Shown: positions 1-11,102, counted from the stretch's first letter. The stretch: DNA of 64,000 bases from an uncultured Candidatus Saccharibacteria bacterium (GCA_964391975.1 CAYMNZ010000001.1:198978-262977), one strand, 5' to 3'. Translations and numbers: made by a program. The notes: a model not told the origin generated them from the sequence alone.

Positions 1-801
1 AACCTGGTCACCAACCTTGAACATGGTACGAGGATCCTCGACGAGGCCCCAGTCGAGTTCACTGATGTGCACGAGGCCTTCGAGTCCAGCCTCGACTTTC
101 ACGAAGACGCCGAAGTCAACGGCACCCGTGACTTCGCCATCAACGACATCGCCCACCTGGTACTTGTCGACCAGAGAAGCCTTCTCCTGCTCCTCCTCAC
201 CAACACGCTCGGAGAAGATAAGTTTTGCCTCCTTCGGATCTGCGGTGATGATGCGCACCGCAAGCGTCTTGCCGGTGAGCTTCACGAGCTCACCAAAGAT
301 CTTCTCCTTGTCGCCTTCAGGAACGCGAGGGTAGTGATCCTTGTTCAACTGGGAAGCTGGAAGGAAGCCCTTGATACCCTGCCATGCAAGGATAAGACCA
401 CCCTTGTTTGCCTCTTCAACATCGAGGTTGTAGATGGTGCCTGCAGCAATGGCCTGCTCAGCCTCGCTCCAGATAGCAGCCTGACGAGCTTCCTTGAGCG
501 AGAGCTCGATGTAGCCGTCCTTACCAGCAGGGTCAACGACCTTAGCGGTGATGGTGTCGCCTGGGTTTGCCTTACGAAGCACATCGGCTGCGTTAAGGTA
601 CTCGCGGCCGTAAATCATTCCCGTTCCAAACGGAGGAAGATCAACGTAGAGGCGACCACGCACAAGTGCGATGATGGTGCCTTCGATAAGGTCCCCAACT
701 TTCGGTGGGGTAACAATCTGCTCTGCGAACTTGAACATTGGGTGTCCTGCTTCCACCGTGAGGGCGGGAACCGGGACTGCCGGCGCTTTTACTTCGGTCA
801 T
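1..801 (-). CDS. rpsA: 30S ribosomal protein S1 (partial; runs off window start)
   Basis: Minus-strand frame from ATG (complement of 799-801) gives MTEVKAPAV...GDLIEGTIIALVRGRLYVDL...GDTITAKVVD...GDVVDGEVTGAVDFGVFVKVEAGLEGLVHISEL, i.e. repeated S1/OB-fold modules. The frame stays open to the window edge. Listed + ORF 67..954 is its antisense shadow. Confidence 0.85.
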   Translation of the reverse strand, partial: MTEVKAPAVPVPALTVEAGHPMFKFAEQIVTPPKVGDLIEGTIIALVRGRLYVDLPPFGTGMIYGREYLNAADVLRKANPGDTITAKVVDPAGKDGYIELSLKEARQAAIWSEAEQAIAAGTIYNLDVEEANKGGLILAWQGIKGFLPASQLNKDHYPRVPEGDKEKIFGELVKLTGKTLAVRIITADPKEAKLIFSERVGEEEQEKASLVDKYQVGDVVDGEVTGAVDFGVFVKVEAGLEGLVHISELDWGLVEDPRTMFKVGDQV

Positions 802-961
802 ATAAATAGACAAGCGGGCCATGCGCTCCGGGGTGTTAAGGAACCTTTCGGTTCGCTAAGGGTTAGTCCCAGGGCGGCTCACAGGCTTCACGCTCGCAAC
901 GGGAAAACACTACCATATATGTCTTTCACCGTGAAGGAGCCTAAGGTAGGATGAGAAGACT

Positions 962-1753
962 ATGCCTGAAGACATCTTTGGCGATCCGCCTCCTCCAAAG
1001 TTCGAAGCAAAAGAATTCCCGGAGCCCTGGTTTGACGCCATCTATGAGGCGAACGCACATTACCCCCAATCAAGCGGCGGCATCGGCCTCAAGTTCCTCA
1101 ACGCTCTTATGAATAGCGGTTGGACGGGTCAAGAGATTATGGCCATTGAGCGCACGAAGTGGAGCTTCACTTCCGACCAAGCCGACGTCATGGCGAAGGG
1201 TCTGCGCGGGATGCACGTGACCTATGGGGTGCCCTGGACTGACACCGACCAGACTGAGGAACACAAGAAGGCGCTCGCGAAGCGGCATGAAGGCTACGAG
1301 CCAGAGATAAAAGAGATTGATTCGGAACGTATGGACCGCTATGCGGAAACTTCAACCAAGATAGTGAACGAGGTCTTCACCCGCATGCGAGAAGCCCTCG
1401 GCAGAGTTATATCCAATCCGAAGGAGGTGTTCCCAATCGTGCGTACCTATACGAAGCATGCGGCGGAGACTATCAGTGGGGACGAGGAATTTCTCGCGCG
1501 TTCGCAGGAGTACAAGGATATCCATCGGGCCTTCTATCTGAGCTTCAAGCCGGGCGAGTTTACGCACGAAGAGATACGGAAGAAATTGAAAGAAGACCCG
1601 AAGATACAGGAGGCACGGGCCATACTCGCGACCACGCTCATCAAGAAGGCGGGTGAAGCCACCGCAATTGACCCGGCGCTTGCTCAGTACGATGTCGAGA
1701 AGCGTGCACAAATCATTTCGCGACTGACAACGGCGGTCATGCCGTTTCTCTAG
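962..1753 (+). CDS. hypothetical protein, paralogue A of 2154..2966
   Basis: 263-aa ORF. It shares N-terminal PPPxF..EFP..WF.AI...NA.FP.SS.G....L.AL and C-terminal V..Y..HAA..I..D.E......Y...HRAF.LS blocks with ORF 2154..2966. No family recognised. Confidence 0.6.
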   Translation: MPEDIFGDPPPPKFEAKEFPEPWFDAIYEANAHYPQSSGGIGLKFLNALMNSGWTGQEIMAIERTKWSFTSDQADVMAKGLRGMHVTYGVPWTDTDQTEEHKKALAKRHEGYEPEIKEIDSERMDRYAETSTKIVNEVFTRMREALGRVISNPKEVFPIVRTYTKHAAETISGDEEFLARSQEYKDIHRAFYLSFKPGEFTHEEIRKKLKEDPKIQEARAILATTLIKKAGEATAIDPALAQYDVEKRAQIISRLTTAVMPFL

Positions 1754-2076
1754 GCGCTACGGCTGGGGAACTTAGCCTTAAGTCGCGCGAGCGCAGCTCC
1801 GTGGTTCTTCAGGATAATCAATTTAGTGAGTGCGATGATTTCGGAGTTATTATTCCTCACTCCTCCTTTCCTAATTTGTGGCGGTTTGAGGTCGAACATG
1901 CTGCAGATGTGGGAGATATCCGATTTTGAAATCCCAGTAAGCTCGAACATCATCTGCTGTGAACAGGTTTTAGCCATAGAACGGAACAGCTTGATGTCGT
2001 CTTCATCAAGGCGAGACTTAAGACGCTCACGCACTTCAGCCGCTGCTTTCGTAAGGGGCTGTTGTTCCTTATACAT
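1750..2076 (-). CDS. small putative helix-turn-helix (XRE-like) DNA-binding protein
   Basis: 108-aa ORF sitting between the two paralogues. Segment SQQMMFELTGISKSDISHI resembles helix2-turn-helix3 of XRE-type HTH. Its stop overlaps the stop of 962..1753 (convergent) and it is divergent from 2154..2966. Confidence 0.4.
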   Translation of the reverse strand: MYKEQQPLTKAAAEVRERLKSRLDEDDIKLFRSMAKTCSQQMMFELTGISKSDISHICSMFDLKPPQIRKGGVRNNNSEIIALTKLIILKNHGAALARLKAKFPSRSA

Positions 2077-2153
2077 ACGAGGAGTATAGCAAGGAGAAGT
2101 GTCTTCACAGGCACGTAGAGCCGTATCCCTAAAAGGAAGAAGGCGCTAGGATA

Positions 2154-2966
2154 TTGGATATGGCTGAGAAGATAACAGACGCGCACGAAAGAAACGACGC
2201 GCCCCCTCCTCGCGAGTTTCCTGCGTCCTGGTTCAAGGCCATCAAAGACGGGAACGCATTCTTTCCTTTCTCGAGCACAGGAGTATCTACATTTTTCCTC
2301 GACGCGCTTTTCGCGGAACACAGCAGTTTTGAAGAAATTGAGAAAGTAACGGAAGCAAAATACGCGACCAGTGATAAGCAGCGTCAGGACTTCATGATTT
2401 CGATGCATGAATTCCATGCCACGTACGCTACTCCAATCGCAGGCGAAGGCAGGGCAGAGGAACTAGATGATGATATCTACGAGCGCACCGGGAAGAGTTC
2501 CCCTGTCGTGCCGGTAGAATTATCCAAGAAGGGATTCGAGCGATTTATGGATGGATTAGTGCTTTCGCCCAAGATCGTGCTTGATTACTTTCGTGAGCAG
2601 GTCGGGCATCTTGTCGGTTCTGAGCAAGAGCTCTATACGGTCGTCAAAGCGTATATAGGGCATGCAGCGCACGTCATCAAGCATGACAAGGAGGTGAGGA
2701 AAGCCATGAAAGCCTACATGGAGGAACATCGGGCCTTCTCACTTTCTCCGCACATAGTGGATCATGAACGTGATCTCGACGCAGGAATTAACAATGCACG
2801 CGGGGAGGTTACCAGAGCCGTAATGTCTGGAATCCACAGCGCGCTCTCCGAAGATCCAGTGTTCGCGAATCGTACTCTTGCGGAACGAGAGCAGCTTATA
2901 GAGACGCTGGGCCTGGCGTACGGCAAGGTGCATCGCCGACCTCTGACTCCGGGCATCCTCCTCTAG
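2154..2966 (+). CDS. hypothetical protein, paralogue B of 962..1753
   Basis: 270-aa ORF with the same conserved blocks as 962..1753 (PPPREFPASWFKAIKDGNAFFPFSSTG...; VVKAYIGHAAHVIKHDKE...HRAFSLS). Confidence 0.6.
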   Translation: MDMAEKITDAHERNDAPPPREFPASWFKAIKDGNAFFPFSSTGVSTFFLDALFAEHSSFEEIEKVTEAKYATSDKQRQDFMISMHEFHATYATPIAGEGRAEELDDDIYERTGKSSPVVPVELSKKGFERFMDGLVLSPKIVLDYFREQVGHLVGSEQELYTVVKAYIGHAAHVIKHDKEVRKAMKAYMEEHRAFSLSPHIVDHERDLDAGINNARGEVTRAVMSGIHSALSEDPVFANRTLAEREQLIETLGLAYGKVHRRPLTPGILL

Positions 2967-2978
2967 AGAATGCGTTTG

Positions 2979-3014
2979 TTCTGTGAGACAAAACGTCTCA
3001 AACGCGCTATAATA
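2979..3014 (+). promoter_or_regulatory. palindrome TGAGACAAAACGTCTCA followed by TATAAT (-10-like) immediately upstream of 3024 gene
   Basis: Perfect 6-bp inverted repeat tgagac/gtctca at about 2983-2999. TATAAT at 3008-3013. AAGGA Shine-Dalgarno 4 nt before ATG 3024. The -10 lies too close to the SD for a standard leader, so the assignment is uncertain. Confidence 0.25.
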
Positions 3015-3023
3015 TAAGGAAAT

Positions 3024-3665
3024 ATGGTCATCACCCACCACGGCGGGCAGTGCTTCAAGGTAACCTTTGGTGACCTCACACTTGTCTTCGACCCCATAAG
3101 TAAGGGCGGCACACTGCCGTCAGTTCGCTTCGGTGCAGACATTGCGCTCGTCTCCCGCCAGCACAAAGATATGAATGGTGTTGATGAAGTTACCTATGGA
3201 GATAAGGAGCCCTTCGCCATCATGGGCCCCGGTGAATATGAATATAAAGGAGTGACCGTGCAGGGCTTCCTTACAAAGAGTGAGTACGGACTCGGTAAGG
3301 GACAGGAGACTGCGATGAACACGGTGTATGCGGTAAAGCTCGAGGGCATGACCTTGGTCCATCTTGGTGCACTCTCCGAAGCCTCACTCCCACCAGAAGC
3401 GAAAGAGGGAATTGATGAGATTGATGTGCTCTTTATTCCAGTCGGAGGCGAGGGAGTACTTGATGCGGCTAAGGCCGCTAAGCTCTCAACCATGCTCGAG
3501 CCAAAGCTCATCATTCCTATGCACTGGAGCGGGATGGGTAAGCCCAAGGCGCTCGAGAGCTATCTTAAGGAGGAGGGAGGGGAGAGCCAGAAGACCGATA
3601 AGCTCACCCTCAAGAAGAAGGATGCGGTTGACAAAGACGGTGATATAATCGTAATAACGCCTTAA
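3024..3665 (+). CDS. MBL-fold (Lactamase_B_3 / UPF0173-like) hydrolase homologue, possibly metal-site degenerate
   Basis: MVITHHGGQCFKVTFGDLTLVFDP... and C-terminal ...LIIPMHW match the beta-lactamase-fold 'metal-dependent hydrolase' layout. The canonical HxHxDH block appears replaced by SRQHKDMNG. Confidence 0.6.
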   Translation: MVITHHGGQCFKVTFGDLTLVFDPISKGGTLPSVRFGADIALVSRQHKDMNGVDEVTYGDKEPFAIMGPGEYEYKGVTVQGFLTKSEYGLGKGQETAMNTVYAVKLEGMTLVHLGALSEASLPPEAKEGIDEIDVLFIPVGGEGVLDAAKAAKLSTMLEPKLIIPMHWSGMGKPKALESYLKEEGGESQKTDKLTLKKKDAVDKDGDIIVITP

Positions 3666-3668
3666 CCT

Positions 3669-3998
3669 ATGAAAGACTACGTCGAACACCTTCGCGCTAA
3701 GCCTGAATCGGTCCGTCGCACCATAGCGTTCTCCGCTGCCGCTGCCATTGCTGCTGTCGTTGGTGCTGGCTGGATGATTGCACTCGTTTCTTCTGGCAAT
3801 CTTGCGATAGCACCTGTTTCCTCTACCGAGGAAGCTTCGGAAGCATTCGCTGAGACCCAGCAGCGCTTTGATGAGCTTGCTGGTGCCGCAAGCGCCTTCT
3901 ACTCCAGCCAAGGAGCTGCAGGTGTGACGGTCGTCGAGGACGAGGCCCCGGCACCCGCAGAGCCAGCTCCACAGGAAGCAAAGGTCCTGCATTTCTAA
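3669..3998 (+). CDS. hypothetical small membrane protein
   Basis: 109-aa ORF with one hydrophobic helix (AAAAIAAVVGAGWMIALV). Stop abuts the gyrA start (TAAATG). Confidence 0.5.
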   Translation: MKDYVEHLRAKPESVRRTIAFSAAAAIAAVVGAGWMIALVSSGNLAIAPVSSTEEASEAFAETQQRFDELAGAASAFYSSQGAAGVTVVEDEAPAPAEPAPQEAKVLHF

Positions 3999-6464
3999 AT
4001 GAAGCGGAAGGAGCAGGATGATGTCTCGCCGAGGACGGCGGCCCAGGTCATAGACCAGTCGATTACTGCAGAGATGCGGTCGAGTTACCTCGACTACGCG
4101 ATGTCGGTGATTACGTCGCGCGCGCTTCCCGATGTACGCGACGGCATGAAGCCGGTGCACCGCCGCATCCTCTACTCGATGCATGAGAACGGACTGCACG
4201 CTGGAGGGAAGACGAGGAAGTCGGCAACGGTGGTGGGAGACGTGATTGGCCGCTACCACCCGCACGGCGACACCGCTGTCTACGACGCGATGGTGAAGCT
4301 CGGTCAGGATTTCTCTACTCGCTATCCTTTAATCATTGGACAAGGAAACTTCGGTTCCATCGACGGTGACCCTCCTGCTGCCTATCGTTACACCGAAGCA
4401 AAGATGTCGAAGATTGGCGGCGAGATGCTCGCTGACCTCGACAAGGAGACCGTTGATTGGAATCCAAACTATGACGGAAGCCACAGAGAGCCCTCAGTTC
4501 TTCCAGCTGCAGCACCAGGACTTCTTCTAAACGGCACGCTCGGTATTGCCGTTGGTATGGCCACCAACATTCCTCCGCACAACCTGCGCGAAGTGGTAGG
4601 CGCAGCAATGCACCTCATTGATGAACCAGAAGCAACCACTGAGGACCTGTTGAAGTTTGTGCAGGGTCCTGACTTCCCACTCGGCGGCATTGCGTTTAAC
4701 CAGGCCGACATCAAGCACGCCTATTCTACCGGCAAGGGAGGTGTGGTGTGTCGCGGTGTTGCAGAGATAGTGGAGGAGAAGAAGGGAACCTCCATCATCA
4801 TTACCTCCATTCCATTCCGCGTGAACAAGGCGGACCTCATCACGCGCATGGCGGAGCTTGTGCGCGATAAGAAGCTCGAGGGCATCAAAGACCTTAGGGA
4901 CGAATCCGCTGAGGATATACGCGTCGTGGTGGAGCTTAAGGGTACCGCACACCCACAGGCAGTTTTGAATAATCTCTTCAAGCACACGGAGCTTGAGTCG
5001 ACCTTCCACTACAACATGCTGGCGCTTGTTGATGGCGTGCCCCAGACACTTTCTCTGAAGGGCATCCTTGAGCATTTCATTGAGCATCGCCGTGTCGTAG
5101 TGAAGCGCCGCACTGAGTTTGAACTCCGCAAAGCAGAAGAGCGCGAGCACATCTTGCTCGGTCTTTCCAAAGCGCTCGACCACATTGATGAGGTCATTGC
5201 CATCATCAAGAAGTCTAAGGACGTACCATCTGCTGACGAAGCGCTTCAGAAGAAGTTTGGTTTCTCTGAGCGACAGACCGCCGCGATTCTCGCTATGCGC
5301 CTTCAGACGCTCGCAGGACTTGAGCGCAAGAAGATTGATGACGAGCTCGCTGAAGTGCAGGAGACCATCAAGCGCCTCAAGAAGATTCTTTCCTCCGCCA
5401 AGAACATTCTTTCCGTGGTGCGTCAGGAGCTTGAGGCCGTTATCGAGAAGTATGGCGACGACCGCCGCACCAAGATTGTGAAGGGAGGCGTGAAGAACAT
5501 TTCGGTGGAAGACCTGGTGCCTGACGAGGAGAGCGTGCTCGTCATCACTCAGGGCGGCTACATAAAGCGCACCAACCCATCTGAATACAAGAAGCAGAAG
5601 CGCGGTGGCGTGGGTGTTGTTGATATGTCCACCAAGGAAGAGGATGTGGTGACGCAGTTCCTTGTAGCCTCCGCTCACTCCGAGCTTCTATTCTTCACCG
5701 ATTACGGAAAGGCGTACCAGACCAAGATGTATGACATCCCTGAAGGCCGCCGCGCCACCAAGGGAAAGAGCATTATGAACTTCCTCCCGCTTGCAGGAGA
5801 TGAGAAGGTAACCTCAGTACTTGCCGTTCCTAAGGGTGCTGCACGCGATGCACTCTCCGTATTCCTCATCACCGAAGGGGGTGTGGTGAAGAAGGTGGAA
5901 GCTAAGAACTTCGCTGACGTCAGGCGCTCGGGCATCATCGCTATCTCGCTTAAGGGCAAGGACCGCCTCGTCTCTGCGCACTTGGCTGAGAACGGCGACT
6001 CCATTTCTATAGTGACCTCGAAGGGTCAATCTATTCGCTTTGACGAAGCAGATGTGCGCGCGATGGGTCGCACGGCAGCAGGAGTGCGCGGTATGACGGT
6101 GAAGAAGGGAGACAGCGTGGTGTCCGCAGAAGTGGTGTCTGCAGCTGCAAAGAAGTCCACACTCCTCATCATCATGAGCAAGGGGTACGGCAAGAAGACC
6201 TCAATGGATGAGTACAAGGTGCAGGGACGCGGAGGCTCAGGCATCAAGACGGCGGAGGTAACCGCAAAGACCGGAGAGATTATTGGTGCCAAAGTGCTTA
6301 CTGGTGACGAAGAGCAGGATGAGGAGATTGTCGTTATTTCAAAGAAGGGTCAGGTGATTCGCTGTGCAGCTGGAGAGATTCCATCGCTTTCTCGCGCAAC
6401 GCAGGGCGTACGCATCATGAAAATGCGCGAAGGCGACTCCATCGCCTCAATGGTTGCGCTCTAA
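3999..6464 (+). CDS. gyrA: DNA gyrase subunit A
   Basis: 821 aa. ...[23 protein letters not shown]...[13 protein letters not shown]...AAYRYTEAK (active-site Tyr motif). C-terminal beta-pinwheel repeats. Confidence 0.95.
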
Positions 6465-6481
6465 CGCTGCTGCTGTTGATT

Positions 6482-6514
6482 GCACGCGCCTCTTCTGGGG
6501 CGCGTGCTATTTTA
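6482..6514 (+). terminator. Rho-independent terminator after gyrA
   Basis: gcacgcgcc-tcttctg-ggcgcgtgc 9-bp GC stem followed by TATTTTAT. Confidence 0.55.
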
Positions 6515-6519
6515 TAGGT

Positions 6520-7053
6520 ATGCACTTTGCTGATCCGACCGCCAACATCCTCCAAATGGGGCTTCGTGAGGGAATGAAGATTGCCGACCTTGGCGCCGGC
6601 TCTGGCCACTACGCTCTTGCGGCTGCAAATATCGCAGGGAAGAGTGGTCGCGTGTATGCCGTCGATGTTCAGGAGGATGTGTTGAAGCACATCCGGGACA
6701 AGGCTACAGACCGCGGACTTGCCAACGTCGATACCGTCTGGGGCAACATCGAGAAGCCAGGAGGCACCAAGCTCAAGGATGCGTCCATTGATGCAGTTAT
6801 CCTTTCAAACACGCTCTTCCAGCTCGAGAGCAAGGAAGCGGTAGTGACCGAAATTAAGCGCATTCTCAAACCCGGTGGCAGGGTGCTCGTGGTTGATTGG
6901 GCAGGCGCGTACGGGGGACTCGGTCCACACCCAGACCACGTTGTCCCAGAGGAGGTCGCGCAAAAGATATTCATTGACGCTGGATTCCATAAGCAGAAGG
7001 CCTTCAGCGGCGGTCCGCACCATTACTCACTTCTCTTTACTACTGCGCCATGA
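6520..7053 (+). CDS. class I SAM-dependent methyltransferase
   Basis: Motif I ADLGAGSGHYALAAA and ...ILKPGGRVLVVDW. Start moved to ATG 6520 (MHFADP...) to avoid overlap with gyrA and the terminator. Confidence 0.75.
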   Translation: MHFADPTANILQMGLREGMKIADLGAGSGHYALAAANIAGKSGRVYAVDVQEDVLKHIRDKATDRGLANVDTVWGNIEKPGGTKLKDASIDAVILSNTLFQLESKEAVVTEIKRILKPGGRVLVVDWAGAYGGLGPHPDHVVPEEVAQKIFIDAGFHKQKAFSGGPHHYSLLFTTAP

Positions 7054-8339
7054 AGCCCTTCCAAACCATCGTCCTTGTTGCGTGCGGGTTCCTCGCGCTC
7101 TTAGGCCTCTTTCTCTTCGCTACCTTCAATGGCGGAGGTAATGGTGGTGTGCCAGTAGGGCCCGTGACCATCTGGGGACCGCTTCCTGCTGACGCAGTGT
7201 ACGAGGGCATTGAGAACTTGAAGGGCACCAACAAGGAATTCCAAGAAATTACCTACATTGAGAAAGACCCAGCAACACTTGAGTCGGATCTTGCTGAGGC
7301 GCTTGCGGGAGGCTACGGTCCTGATCTCGTTATCATTTCGCAGGAACAGATTCTCTCGCAGGCAGGGAAGTTGAGCATCATTCCGTTTGAAAGTGTTTCA
7401 GAACGCACCTTCGTCAGTACGTATCTTCCAATAACCGAGCTCTATCTCACGGACACGGGCTTCTATGGCTTCCCGATTACGGTTGACCCCTTGGTCGTGT
7501 ACTACAACCGCACGCTCCTCTCCAACGCAGGACTTCCACTCCCACCAAACCTGTGGGAAGTGGTGACGGCGCTCGCCGACCGACTAACGCAACTGCAGCC
7601 AGATCAGAGCATTGAGAAGAGCGCGATTGCACTTGGTGAGTACGGGAACGTCGCCAACGCACGAGCCATCGTCTCGCTCCTCCTTCTGCAATCCGGAAGC
7701 ACTATCACCACCAAGGAAGCTGGACGAGTACGTTCAACGCTCTCTGCTGGAACGTCAGCAAGTGGGAATGCGCCTGCAGTGTCGGCTATGAACTTCTACA
7801 CACAGTTTGCAAACCCGGTGAAAACCGTTTACTCCTGGAACCGCTCCCTCCCGAACTCGCGCCTTGCGTTTCTTTCAGGCGACCTCGCGCTCTACATTGG
7901 CTTTGCGTCCGAACGGAAGTACCTTGCCGCTGCCAACCCCAACCTCGACTTCGACATGGCACCGATTCCGCAGCCAGGCACTGCAGCGAACCCTAAGACC
8001 TACGGACTTGCCTATGCGTTTGCGATTCCGAAAGCAGCAGCAAACTTTGAGGGAGCGTTCCGCACCGCCGTTGCCCTTACCTTCCATGACCCACTCAAGA
8101 TTATCTCGGAGGGCTCCGGTATGGCGCCAGCCCAGAGGGTGATGTTGAACGACACGCCGGACCGCTTTACTGAGCTTTTCTATCCGCAGGCACTTATCGC
8201 GTCCGGCTGGCTCTCCCCAGCACCTCGGGTAACTGACACAATCTTCTCTGCTATGATTGAAAACATAACCACCGGCCGGAAGGACGTAGCAGAGTCCCTC
8301 TCGTCGGCGGAACTGACCCTGAACGCGGCACTGCCATGA
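7050..8339 (+). CDS. extracellular solute-binding protein (ABC-type, family 1-like), N-terminal membrane anchor
   Basis: N-terminal TM/signal. PVTIWGPLPADAVYEG...GGYGPDLVIISQEQI...LSIIPFES resembles periplasmic-binding-protein fold. No permease or ATPase adjacent. Stop overlaps the start of the first pilin-like gene. Confidence 0.55.
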   Translation: MKPFQTIVLVACGFLALLGLFLFATFNGGGNGGVPVGPVTIWGPLPADAVYEGIENLKGTNKEFQEITYIEKDPATLESDLAEALAGGYGPDLVIISQEQILSQAGKLSIIPFESVSERTFVSTYLPITELYLTDTGFYGFPITVDPLVVYYNRTLLSNAGLPLPPNLWEVVTALADRLTQLQPDQSIEKSAIALGEYGNVANARAIVSLLLLQSGSTITTKEAGRVRSTLSAGTSASGNAPAVSAMNFYTQFANPVKTVYSWNRSLPNSRLAFLSGDLALYIGFASERKYLAAANPNLDFDMAPIPQPGTAANPKTYGLAYAFAIPKAAANFEGAFRTAVALTFHDPLKIISEGSGMAPAQRVMLNDTPDRFTELFYPQALIASGWLSPAPRVTDTIFSAMIENITTGRKDVAESLSSAELTLNAALP

Positions 8340-8968
8340 TTTCACGCCTCTCGTTCCTCATTCTCCTTTTTGCACTCTCGCTCGCGGTAGTACCGGTTTC
8401 AGCAGATGCGCTTGAGTGCGACGGACAGGTGTGTCTGCAGCCTGGCATGGTCTGTGCAGGACCTGAAGGCTCACAGTACTGTCAGTTGCCGGCAGCAGAA
8501 CCGACAGGTGTCTCTTGTGGTACTAAAACGTGTGATGGCGGGGAAATTTGCTGCAACGCACCTCAGTTCCCTAACGCGCCGTTCTGTTCAACGCAGTCCA
8601 CGTGTACTGCTATACAAAATCAGGCTACCCAGCCCAACACCACTCCTTCTCCCAGTACCGGAGACGTTACGGACAATAATAATAGTGAGGGAAGTAACAG
8701 CGGCGTCGCACTCATCAACCCGCTTAAGGTAGACACGGTCCCTGAGTTCCTCGCGCTCATCCTTGCAGCGGTCGTGAACCTCGGCACCATCATCCTCGTT
8801 CTCATGCTCGTGTATGTGGGCTTCCTCTTCGTGGTCGCGCAAGGAAACGAAGAGAAATTGCAGAACGCAAAATCCGCGCTTCTGTGGACGGTGGTGGGAG
8901 GTTTGGTGCTCCTTGGTGCCCAGGCCATCTCGCTTGTCATTCAGGCCACCGTAGGCAGCCTCCAGTAA
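8336..8968 (+). CDS. VirB2/TrbC-like pilin paralogue with N-terminal secreted Cys-rich domain
   Basis: Signal peptide. Cys-rich block (CDGQVCLQPGMVCAG...CGTKTCDGGEICC...). Ser/Thr/Asn linker. C-terminal two-TM module (LILAAVVNLGTIILVLMLVYVGFLFVVAQGNEEKLQNAKSALLWTVVGGLVLLGAQAISLVIQ) with the same topology as the following paralogues. Confidence 0.6.
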   Translation: MISRLSFLILLFALSLAVVPVSADALECDGQVCLQPGMVCAGPEGSQYCQLPAAEPTGVSCGTKTCDGGEICCNAPQFPNAPFCSTQSTCTAIQNQATQPNTTPSPSTGDVTDNNNSEGSNSGVALINPLKVDTVPEFLALILAAVVNLGTIILVLMLVYVGFLFVVAQGNEEKLQNAKSALLWTVVGGLVLLGAQAISLVIQATVGSLQ

Positions 8969-8971
8969 GCC

Positions 8972-9217
8972 ATGACCTTCGCCGACCTCGTCAACCAGCA
9001 CTTCGTTCCCTTCGTCGACTACGCGATTATCCCGCTTCTCTACGCGCTCGCGTTCATCTTCTTTCTTATCGGTATCGTACGTCTGTTGTTCTCGCTTGAG
9101 GAAGAGAAGCGCAACGAAGGCAAGAAGTTCGTGCTCTGGGGCCTTCTTGGCATGGTGGTGCTGTTTGCCGTCTGGGGCATTGTAAAGATGCTTCTCGGGG
9201 TCTTAACCGGTGCGTGA
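8972..9217 (+). CDS. VirB2/TrbC-like two-TM pilin paralogue
   Basis: 81 aa. TM1-charged loop (FSLEEEKRNEGKKFVLWG)-TM2 (LLGMVVLFAVWGIVKMLLGV). Shares motif with neighbours. Confidence 0.65.
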   Translation: MTFADLVNQHFVPFVDYAIIPLLYALAFIFFLIGIVRLLFSLEEEKRNEGKKFVLWGLLGMVVLFAVWGIVKMLLGVLTGA

Positions 9218-9707
9218 TACCATAATTCCTATGCAGCAACTTTCACTCTTCTTCATCAACATCGTCAAGATTATCGATGTGGTAATCGTGCCGGTCATCT
9301 TTTCGGTGGCCTTTGTGGTGTTCCTTTGGGGAGTATTCCGCTACTTCATCGCAGGGGCAGGCGACGAGGAGAAGCGCAAGGAAGGTCGCACGTTCATCAC
9401 CTGGGGCATCATTGGTTTCTTCCTTATGTTTGCCGTCTGGGGCATCGTGAACCTGCTCATCAACTCGCTTGGCTTTGATACAAAGACGCGCCCAATGCTC
9501 CCGCTCTTTGGTAGCGGAGGAGGGGCAGCGGGGGAACAGTATGCACAGGGTTACGCCGTCCAGAGTCAGGGTACGATCGGAGCAGGGATACCTCCAATCG
9601 GTGCAACCGCAGGAAGCTGTGGCGTCATGGGAGTCAGTGCGCTTGGCTTGTGCCCGCAGTACTTTGACTGCGTTAATAACGTCTGTACGAACCGAGACGG
9701 GGATTAG
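9210..9707 (+). CDS. VirB2/TrbC-like pilin paralogue with C-terminal Gly/Cys-rich tail
   Basis: Core VFLWGVFRYFIAGAGDEEKRKEGRTFITWGIIGFFLMFAVWGIVNLL plus tail ...CGVMGVSALGLCPQYFDCVNNVCTN. 8-nt overlap with the previous gene. Confidence 0.65.
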   Translation: MRDTIIPMQQLSLFFINIVKIIDVVIVPVIFSVAFVVFLWGVFRYFIAGAGDEEKRKEGRTFITWGIIGFFLMFAVWGIVNLLINSLGFDTKTRPMLPLFGSGGGAAGEQYAQGYAVQSQGTIGAGIPPIGATAGSCGVMGVSALGLCPQYFDCVNNVCTNRDGD

Positions 9708-9791
9708 TGTGTTTTCCACACAGCGCACTGACCTCTATTGACTCGTAGGTAAGGCGCCGTATCCTATACAAGTACTCACTACCCATATCTC

Positions 9792-10154
9792 ATGAACAAA
9801 CTCGCTTACATTGGTGCTGCCGCCTTGCTGCTCACTCCGCTTGCAACCTTTGCGGCCGTGACCAGCATCTACGACCTCGGCGCCCTCGTCCTCACCGTCA
9901 TCAACGACATTCTCGTACCGGTGGTGTTTGCTATCGCCTTTATCGTCTTTATTTGGGGCGTGTTCCGTTACTTCATCGCTGGCAAGCAGGATGAGGAGAG
10001 CCGTGAGAAGGGTAAGTCCCTCATGCTCTGGGGCCTCATTGGCTTCTTCGTGATGGTCTCGGTTTGGGGCCTCGTGAACATCCTTGTGGGCACCTTGGAC
10101 CTCAACACCAACGTTCCGAACTTCCCGGACACTCCAATCCCAACGCGCCGCTAG
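9792..10154 (+). CDS. VirB2/TrbC-like pilin paralogue (signal peptide + two-TM core)
   Basis: Signal peptide MNKLAYIGAAALLLTPLATFA. Core IVFIWGVFRYFIAGKQDEESREKGKSLMLWGLIGFFVMVSVWGLVNILV. Confidence 0.7.
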   Translation: MNKLAYIGAAALLLTPLATFAAVTSIYDLGALVLTVINDILVPVVFAIAFIVFIWGVFRYFIAGKQDEESREKGKSLMLWGLIGFFVMVSVWGLVNILVGTLDLNTNVPNFPDTPIPTRR

Positions 10155-10171
10155 TAGGCGTTCTCCACTCA

Positions 10172-10200
10172 AGAAACCCCGCGCGAGCGGGGTTTCTTGC
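10172..10200 (+). terminator. Rho-independent terminator
   Basis: aaccccgc-gcga-gcggggtt stem-loop followed by TCTTGCTACTAT. Confidence 0.5.
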
Positions 10201-10212
10201 TACTATAGGCCT

Positions 10213-10476
10213 ATGCAATTGAGTGGTGTCTTCTGCGGCTTCATCGACCCGGCTATTCATGTCGTGTTGATTCCGGCAATCTTCACCATGTCCTTCATCG
10301 CGTTTTTATGGGCGGTTTTCTACTACGCTATTGCGGGTGAGTATGATGAGTTTGCTCGTGAGATGGCCAAAGGTCTCATGCTCTGGAGCATTATGGCCTT
10401 CTTTGTGATGGCGGCGCTCTGGGGCGTAATTGAGGTCATCTACGGTTGGCTCGGCATCAGCAGTGCTATGTGCTAA
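10213..10476 (+). CDS. VirB2/TrbC-like two-TM pilin paralogue
   Basis: Start trimmed to ATG 10213 (MQLSGVF...). Core IAFLWAVFYYAIAGEYDEFAREMAKGLMLWSIMAFFVMAALWGVIEVI. Confidence 0.6.
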   Translation: MQLSGVFCGFIDPAIHVVLIPAIFTMSFIAFLWAVFYYAIAGEYDEFAREMAKGLMLWSIMAFFVMAALWGVIEVIYGWLGISSAMC

Positions 10477-10492
10477 TGCTATACTTTTCTCT

Positions 10493-10765
10493 ATGAACCC
10501 TCCTGATCCATTGCCAAGCGACGGTACTAACTTCTTCAAAAATCTTGAAGTCGCTATTATTGACCCGCTCATTACGCTTCTCGCCCTTGCGGCCTTTGTG
10601 GTCTTTGTGTGGGGTGTCGTTGAGTTCATCCGCGGAGCGGACAACCAGGAGGCACGCAGCAAGGGCCAGAAGCACATTATCTGGGGCTTGATTGGACTCA
10701 CTATTATCTTTGGTGCTCGCGCTATCTTGGCGCTCATCAACACCACAGTCTCGGGGTTTAACTAG
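10493..10765 (+). CDS. VirB2/TrbC-like two-TM pilin paralogue
   Basis: Start trimmed to ATG 10493 (MNPPDPL...). Core VVFVWGVVEFIRGADNQEARSKGQKHIIWGLIGLTIIFGARAILALI. Confidence 0.6.
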   Translation: MNPPDPLPSDGTNFFKNLEVAIIDPLITLLALAAFVVFVWGVVEFIRGADNQEARSKGQKHIIWGLIGLTIIFGARAILALINTTVSGFN

Positions 10766-10847
10766 TGCTGGGAAGAGGACTCGAACCTCCATGCCTTTCG
10801 GCGCCACGTCCTAAGCGTGGTGCGTATACCAATTCCGCCATCCCAGC
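10766..10847 (-). tRNA. tRNA-Leu (anticodon TAG)
   Basis: Reverse complement gctgggatggcggaattggtatacgc...cttagga...long variable arm...ggttcgagtcctcttcccagca. Anticodon loop CTTAGGA. Long variable arm typical of Leu. Confidence 0.8.
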
Positions 10848-10893
10848 GTTTTTATAGAGTACACGTTCTCTCGCATTTTGTCCGCACCGCTTC

Positions 10894-10969
10894 TGGTGCG
10901 CCCACCAGGGCTCGAACCTGGGACCTTATCCTTAAGAGGGATCTGCTCTACCAACTGAGCTATGGGCGC
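10894..10969 (-). tRNA. tRNA-Lys (anticodon CTT), CCA encoded
   Basis: Reverse complement gcgcccatagctcagttggtagagcagatccctcttaaggataaggtcccaggttcgagccctggtgggcgcacca. Anticodon loop CTCTTAA. Good D- and T-arms. Confidence 0.85.
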
Positions 10970-11018
10970 GCTGGTCTGAATACTATCGGACTTGTGCAAA
11001 TTCTTCAACCACTTTGTG

Positions 11019-11102
11019 TGCCGAGGGTGGGACTCGAACCCACACGACATTACTGCCTGGGGATTTTAAGACCCCTATGTCTACCAATTCCATCACCTCG
11101 GC
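11019..11102 (-). tRNA. tRNA-Leu (anticodon TAA)
   Basis: Reverse complement gccgaggtgatggaattggtagacataggggtcttaaaatcccc...long variable arm...gggttcgagtcccaccctcggca. Anticodon loop CTTAAAA. Confidence 0.75.

Follow-up and report, generated by a model that had tools for sequence, protein, structure and literature searches.

Two paralogous genes with a small, oppositely oriented gene between them raise the question of whether the three work as one module or only share a site on the chromosome. Such a triad, here called A, S and B, is found near the left end of the window, i.e. the whole 64,000-nucleotide stretch of DNA analyzed (GCA_964391975.1 CAYMNZ010000001.1:198978-262977, from an uncultured Candidatus Saccharibacteria bacterium). 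The window, which is part of a 742-kb contig, is a segment of a bacterial chromosome carrying rpsA, gyrA, infB, clpB, topA, serS and carB together with seven tRNA genes. Genomes of the candidate phyla radiation (CPR, Patescibacteria) are small, and the majority of the genes specific to one of their lineages carry no annotation. The answer that we consider best, with a probability of roughly 55%, is that a flexible slot carries the triad as accessory cargo, A and B being old copies of a rare family of cassette genes and S an independent small regulator. The three would be lineage-specific accessory genes, not a dedicated paralogue-regulator-paralogue machine. Their site would be a recombination-prone spacer between two divergent core genes of a Paceibacterota (CPR) chromosome, rpsA and a gene for a protein with the metallo-β-lactamase (MBL) fold.

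The slot was defined by comparison with relatives. A scan of metagenome contigs anchored on the MBL-fold gene found 316 relatives, and 80 loci were kept, in which the MBL-fold protein is 70-88% identical at the amino acid (aa) level. The divergent rpsA-MBL pair is kept in 54 of the 80, with a spacer of 134-2634 bp; in 14 loci the spacer measures 134-146 bp and is empty. Homology to the window ends by about position 900 and restarts at 2985-3024 in every one of the 80 loci, and nucleotide homology within 926-2999 is absent from all of them. Searches of these loci with tblastn and hmmsearch detected no S, no member of the A/B family and no NT283, a protein introduced below. The open reading frames (ORFs) that occupy the slot in relatives are nearly all unrelated singletons, none related to A, S or B; only a DsbA-like thioredoxin and a PhnB-like protein could be recognized among them. 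Inside the slot the conserved flanks of the window occupy 802-925 and 3000-3023 (124 and 24 nt). Because their sum, about 148 nt, equals the length of an empty slot, approximately 926-2999 can be regarded as inserted cargo. The features of the locus are as follows.

1-801, minus strand: 5′ part of rpsA (ribosomal protein S1), the left core gene; S1 domain (PF00575) on the called product.
802-925: conserved region upstream of rpsA that forms the slot's left edge; relatives are homologous up to about 908-925.
926-2999: lineage-specific insert (cargo) of the rpsA-MBL slot, holding A, S and B; ends approximate.
962-1753, plus strand: paralogue A, 263 aa, acidic, soluble, predicted all-helical; member of an unnamed rare family.
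1750-2076, minus strand: S, 108 aa, basic, five predicted helices; probable helix-turn-helix (HTH) at residues 25-60.
2084-2089, minus strand: TATACT, a −10-like box 6 nt 5′ of the start codon of S; a Shine-Dalgarno sequence is absent.
2118-2129, plus strand: GAGCCGTATCCC, relic of a Shine-Dalgarno sequence and ATG; the counterpart in P0008 of contig L012 is GGAGCCGTATGCCC.
2160-2966, plus strand: paralogue B (P0007), 268 aa from ATG 2160, or 270 aa from TTG 2154.
2985-3023, plus strand: promoter-like site and ribosome-binding site of the MBL-fold gene (GAGACA-17-TATAAT), conserved; the right edge of the slot.
3024-3665, plus strand: MBL-fold gene (Lactamase_B_3, Pfam E=5.9e-28), the right core gene.

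The local gene order is rpsA (−), A (+), S (−), B (+), MBL-fold gene (+), a gene for a 109-aa membrane protein, and gyrA; the list of ORFs in the slot comprises A, S, B and short overlapping ORFs only. For rpsA a conserved ATG is found at 801, and public gene calls take the Met at 738; for B they use ATG 2160 (268 aa). The three ORFs of a preliminary description of this DNA are all present at the coordinates given there, and the arrangement that it reported was confirmed. A and S are convergent, their stop codons overlapping within the palindrome CTAG at 1750-1753. S is divergent from B, with the 77-nt spacer of that description if B starts at TTG 2154 and with 83 nt if it starts at ATG 2160. 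The suspicion that the triad sits in a variable region was also borne out, the spacer between the conserved rpsA and MBL-fold genes being hypervariable.

A different occupancy of the slot was found in a sister lineage (L003-L007 and L018), which matches the window at 90% DNA identity over 2-908 and at 86-89% from 3000 on (blastn). Its S gene is 72% identical to that of the window at the DNA level, and A and B are absent. Gene order in L003 is MBL, S, a 283-aa nucleotidyltransferase-like gene and rpsA, and in this lineage S starts about 45 nt from the start of the MBL-fold gene. The 283-aa protein, NT283 (L003:773-1624, also in L004-L007), is encoded 20 nt 3′ of S on the same strand. It carries a nucleotidyltransferase-like motif, GEHSDVDV, and its only match, Aminoglyc_resit with E=0.024, is below the cut-off. 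Since S occurs here with NT283 and without A or B, and members of the A/B family occur elsewhere without S, the three genes do not form a conserved unit, a possibility raised in the preliminary description; they are lineage-specific cargo.

The slot resembles flexible islets, or hypervariable regions, between core genes. The same core pair flanks it in 54 relatives, homology breaks off sharply at its borders, empty sites of ~134-146 bp exist, and the occupants are unrelated and lineage-specific. It differs in its very small size (0-2.6 kb, with one to four genes), in lacking an integrase, tRNA or repeat signature at its edges and in belonging to a CPR genome of ~0.74 Mb. A, S and B matched no integrase, recombinase or transposase family, and neither a tRNA gene nor flanking direct repeats were found at the slot. 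An islet between core genes is, like allele replacement within conserved flanks (see below), a phenomenon of known kind. Many relatives (L020-L099) have a slot of 0.4-1.3 kb with no convincing ORF, only frames rich in arginine and proline. One slot (L030:4035-5836) has a large(+)/small(−)/large(+) layout of 224, 100 and 236 aa, unrelated to A, S and B according to hhalign. The same program ruled out both the L030 slot proteins and NT283 as distant members of the A/B family.

A and B are paralogues, as first described: BLASTP aligns them over 256 aa with 29% identity (E=6e-30), far beyond chance, with blocks in common at both the N and the C terminus. The common N-terminal block reads PPP..EFP..WF.AI..GNA..P.SS.G. 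An exhaustive search of 1.84 billion representative proteins with a profile of A and B returned only 13 clusters (E<=1e-3, 155-279 aa), and a further search, word-indexed and using the profile of the family, yielded no more than two proteins and nothing new. The N-terminal motif P..WF.A...GNA..P.S..G is common to all 13 clusters; N31, P35 and H85 are invariant and Q73 is almost invariant. Conservation sits in the first ~100 residues: the mean pairwise identity per column reaches 0.54 for residues 21-40, as against 0.14-0.25 past residue 120, and the most distant members align only up to position ~170 of the 284 in the profile. Members have so far been found only on metagenomic contigs, and those with a taxonomic label are Paceibacterota. 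Single members also occur among housekeeping genes, P0010 next to an rplT-like gene and P0015 next to HIT, PGK and TIM.

Pairwise identities across the family all lie between 19 and 40%, and the value for A and B falls within this range, so that the two are as distant from each other as from members in other genomes. In a neighbor-joining tree A is placed outside the pair formed by B and P0008. By this tree the split between A and B appears older than the split between B and its positional counterpart P0008, and A and B would be two old family copies that diverged separately. The preliminary description had spoken of a local duplication, which is doubtful on these grounds.

No known family had been recognized for A and B at the outset, and the database searches led to the same result. 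Neither protein matched Pfam, NCBIfam, PHROGs or PADLOC above noise. The 13 family members scanned singly against Pfam gave no recurrent family, and among PDB sequence profiles only designed helical bundles were matched (E>0.09). Both A and B are soluble and acidic, with an isoelectric point (pI) of 5.6, and the family is typically ~260 aa long. Inspection of the family protein by eye revealed neither a signal peptide nor a transmembrane segment; it looks like a cytoplasmic, soluble, helical protein. The AlphaFold2 (AF2) model of A, built on a two-sequence alignment, is all-helical, with a predicted local distance difference test (pLDDT) score of 76.5 and a predicted template-modeling (pTM) score of 0.73. 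In it a small N-domain is joined by a linker modeled with low confidence (91-120) to a bundle of C-terminal helices. Foldseek found no structural neighbor of this model: the best PDB match had E=0.27 and a template-modeling (TM) score of ~0.15, and the best BFVD match E=0.43. The A/B family and S both appear to be undescribed and without detectable relatives of known function.

A second chromosomal site of the family makes it possible to compare the gene with its flanks. At this site a SWIB gene (+) is followed by the family gene (+), a Pyr_excise gene (−, with overlapping stops) and a 64-aa gene (−); it was found for P0011, P0012 and P0013. The Pyr_excise proteins adjoining the family genes (111 aa, T4 endonuclease V-like) are 92-93% identical. 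Between L019 and L013 DNA identity is 97% upstream and 92% downstream, but the family genes share no DNA similarity and their products, P0013 and P0011, are 25% identical. Between L016 and L019 the corresponding values are 97% upstream, 82% downstream and 40% for P0012 versus P0013. In the slot of the window, comparison with L012 gave 83% aa identity for S and 96% DNA identity over 75 nt of the right flank, and 31% aa identity for B versus P0008. The P0011 locus was found in three separate runs.

In-place drift cannot give a protein divergence of 60-75%, because flanks of such similarity limit neutral divergence to a few percent at each site. Judged from these alignments, replacement would fit the contrast between flank and gene better than divergence in place, and as the simplest reading we infer that alleles were replaced through recombination, by others from an old pool. 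The A/B family gene would then form, on its own, a cassette that can be replaced at fixed sites on the chromosome, its alleles being exchanged through homologous recombination in the flanks and the pool being maintained by diversifying or frequency-dependent selection. The likeness to loci known for allelic replacement under such selection lies in flanks of 92-97% identity around proteins of 25-40% identity, and in breakpoints at gene boundaries at two chromosomal sites; the differences are that the family protein is cytoplasmic-looking, soluble and helical, and that a handful of alleles was sampled. A published report describes natural competence in other CPR bacteria (PMC10187176), which makes flank-guided replacement plausible.

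Close strains differ in A by four synonymous and three non-synonymous substitutions and not at all in S and B; this low polymorphism argues against ongoing hypermutation. Comparison of window positions 1-8086 with L001 (97.8% identity) showed single-nucleotide polymorphisms (SNPs) in tracts at 401-600, 3001-4600, 5001-5600 and 7401-7600, with SNP-free sequence between them. This patchiness suggests frequent homologous recombination in the population. A sweep of the module, considered from the SNP density in close strains, was rejected, since the SNP-free tracts are scattered over all of the 8 kb compared.

That S is a genuine gene and subject to purifying selection follows from the 66-83% identity of its homologues and from a ratio of non-synonymous to synonymous substitution rates (dN/dS) of 0.11-0.19 (Nei-Gojobori). 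Five clusters of homologues were found in all (66-100% identical), and a scan of GTDB genomes with S returned one sister-lineage contig only. The protein is basic (pI 9.95), and the AF2 model (pLDDT 81.9) has helices at residues 10-22, 25-37, 40-47, 51-60 and 77-102. Nothing significant was matched in Pfam, NCBIfam, PHROGs, PADLOC, PDB sequence profiles or BFVD. The XRE-like HTH noted in the preliminary description was seen again as a signal to HTH_3/HTH_19 at residues 28-57, but this is sub-threshold (12.4 bits versus a cut-off of 30.2, E=0.15) and the curated score was not reached. Among the five homologue clusters HTH_19 was seen in two and HTH_3 in one, each at E ~0.13. Foldseek matches of the model in PDB all have E>=0.98 and a TM score of ~0.3; about half of those listed are HTH DNA-binding domains, including those of LysR, SmtB/PagR, C.AhdI, Aca11 and SinR. 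Taken together, these sequence and model comparisons make it likely that S carries an HTH.

S has the small size and basic character of XRE or Cro/C1-type regulators, among them the Aca proteins and the C-proteins of restriction-modification systems, and also their arrangement of three short helices (25-60) ahead of a long C-terminal one. It also resembles them in its weak HTH_19/HTH_3 signal, in its HTH-rich fold matches and in its position beside variable cargo, divergent from the neighboring gene. It differs in the non-significant scores (E ~0.13; Foldseek E ~1 or worse) and in that no palindromic operator was found in the 77-nt spacer. Because S is retained beside different neighbors, it would most likely act locally, controlling transcription of its own gene and of the adjoining one. 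S was also considered as a divergent Pyr_excise protein and rejected: Pfam gave no Pyr_excise match at E<=10, and hhalign gave a probability of 0.07%.

The TATACT box 5′ of S is kept, without a Shine-Dalgarno sequence, in all three S-bearing lineages, which suggests that the S transcript is leaderless. The family genes at the SWIB site have a similar organization: each follows a hairpin-plus-T-run terminator located after SWIB, and a TATACT box lies 8-9 nt before the ATG, again without a Shine-Dalgarno sequence (L016, ~1305-1310; L019, ~6467-6472; L013, ~107-112). These elements suggest that the SWIB-site genes and S are self-promoted, possibly with leaderless transcripts. Upstream of B a 12-nt remnant of the Shine-Dalgarno sequence and ATG of P0008 remains at 2118-2129, and the 5′ end of B has been remodeled. 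Scanning of 2077-2153, between S and B, for operator-like inverted repeats revealed no convincing palindrome. The same spacer contains a 16-codon ORF from GTG 2100 to TAG 2150 preceded by AAGGAG, which may be due to chance. A promoter and terminator scan gave counts matching the shuffle expectation, with only the MBL promoter-like site standing out, and an Rfam scan of 700-3100 had no match.

We think it unlikely that the triad works as a single unit, such as a toxin-antitoxin-like or anti-phage module. In such a unit S would repress the divergent B promoter and would be coupled to A by convergent overlapping transcription. The tight packing (a divergent spacer of 77-83 nt, a 4-nt overlap of stops), the location in a variable region and the recurrence of a divergent S/B-type pair in L012 are in keeping with this idea. 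So is the sister lineage, where S lies 20 nt before the nucleotidyltransferase-like gene, an antitoxin-first layout reminiscent of AbiE. In AbiE-type (type IV) toxin-antitoxin systems an HTH antitoxin is followed by a nucleotidyltransferase toxin, and NT283 carries a GxSDVD-type nucleotidyltransferase-like motif; however, the window has no NT283 gene, and NT283 has no AbiE-type match in Pfam (E<=1) or PADLOC. The same lineage also has S without the A/B family, and family members without S lie beside SWIB/Pyr_excise, rplT-like and HIT/PGK genes, both of which speak against a unit. PADLOC-DB v2 profiles (E<=1) gave zero matches for A, B, S, NT283, P0008 and P0012, and no phage or viral relatives were found by tblastn against 50,697 phage records or in an IMG/VR scan. 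The triad is not a recognizable defence system, and the comparison with defence-type modules made in the preliminary description could not be upheld.

We also doubt that A and B are ordinary, fast-drifting orphans of a reduced CPR genome in a slot that varies because insertions beside rpsA are tolerated. CPR genomes are rich in hypothetical proteins, the cargo of relatives is heterogeneous and partly non-genic in appearance, and polymorphism between close strains is low and mostly synonymous, all in favor of this reading. Drift would not, however, account for proteins of 25-40% identity with no residual DNA similarity between flanks of 92-97%, nor for ORFs that are intact at ~260 aa with an invariant motif across 13 clusters. 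A source of variability in a diversity-generating retroelement (DGR), phase variation or chimeric metagenome assembly is highly improbable. DGRs are known to make bacterial genes hypervariable, but no template-like repeat of the module exists in the 64-kb window (the sole short match, of 14 nt, is due to chance), and the divergence covers the whole gene. Close strains that were assembled independently have the same S and B and an almost identical A, and recovery of the P0011 locus from separate runs speaks against a chimera. On these grounds, with the search for repeats covering the 64-kb window, DGR activity and hypermutation were rejected.

The reading of the triad as cargo, with A and B as replaceable cassettes, has to be set against several observations. 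The right flank common to the window and L012 spans just 75 nt, and the deduction of diversifying selection draws on no more than three or four pairs of loci, of which two lie on contigs of <1.6 kb. No biochemical or structural clue to the function of the family was found in the fold searches (Foldseek E=0.27 in PDB, 0.43 in BFVD), and the model of A was derived from two aligned sequences. The HTH fold of S is a plausible prediction, with all scores below significance. Moreover, S and a B-type gene are divergent neighbors in two lineages, and some regulatory link between S and B may exist.

If cassette replacement does occur, the division of the family protein into a constant and a variable part could be meaningful. 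The constant N-domain may carry an activity or a docking function, and the variable C-domain may set specificity toward an antagonist or partner, e.g. a phage or host cell. A tentative extension, which we consider rather improbable as a whole, is that CPR bacteria have in this family an undescribed class of specificity determinants, with a constant N-domain and a rapidly replaced helical C-domain. Each would be encoded by a self-promoted, possibly leaderless cassette of one gene at a fixed site, which homologous recombination would swap between strains under frequency-dependent selection from phages or from the host cells on which these episymbionts depend. A conserved N and a variable C terminus are also the layout of polymorphic toxin/immunity systems; no known trafficking or toxin domain was matched in the family. 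The neighbors 3′ of family genes, S and Pyr_excise, are convergent and conserved and do not co-vary with them.

To our knowledge, almost nothing has been established about the specificity of phage-CPR and CPR-host interactions, and the A/B family is a candidate handle on either. Wholesale replacement of a family gene between flanks of 92-97% identity would mark strong selection at the strain level. Should the family turn out to be no more than a drifting orphan, interest in it would be local. The rpsA-MBL spacer itself is a natural, well-delimited and insertion-tolerant site, which could be of use in comparative population genomics or provide genetic work with a neutral landing site.

Two further regions of the window deserve mention. 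Between close strains no gene diverges faster (7.9% at the DNA level) than that of the 109-aa membrane protein at 3669-3998, which separates the MBL-fold gene from gyrA; it has an indel-like patch at 3822-3841, and its product is 31-53% identical in relatives whose MBL-fold proteins are 78-88% identical. At 8336-10765 four small paralogous T4SS_pilin (PF18895) genes, which share DNA repeats of ~71% identity, are found with an 87-aa gene that has no match. They are followed by a cluster of tRNA genes for Leu, Lys and Leu at 10765-11102.

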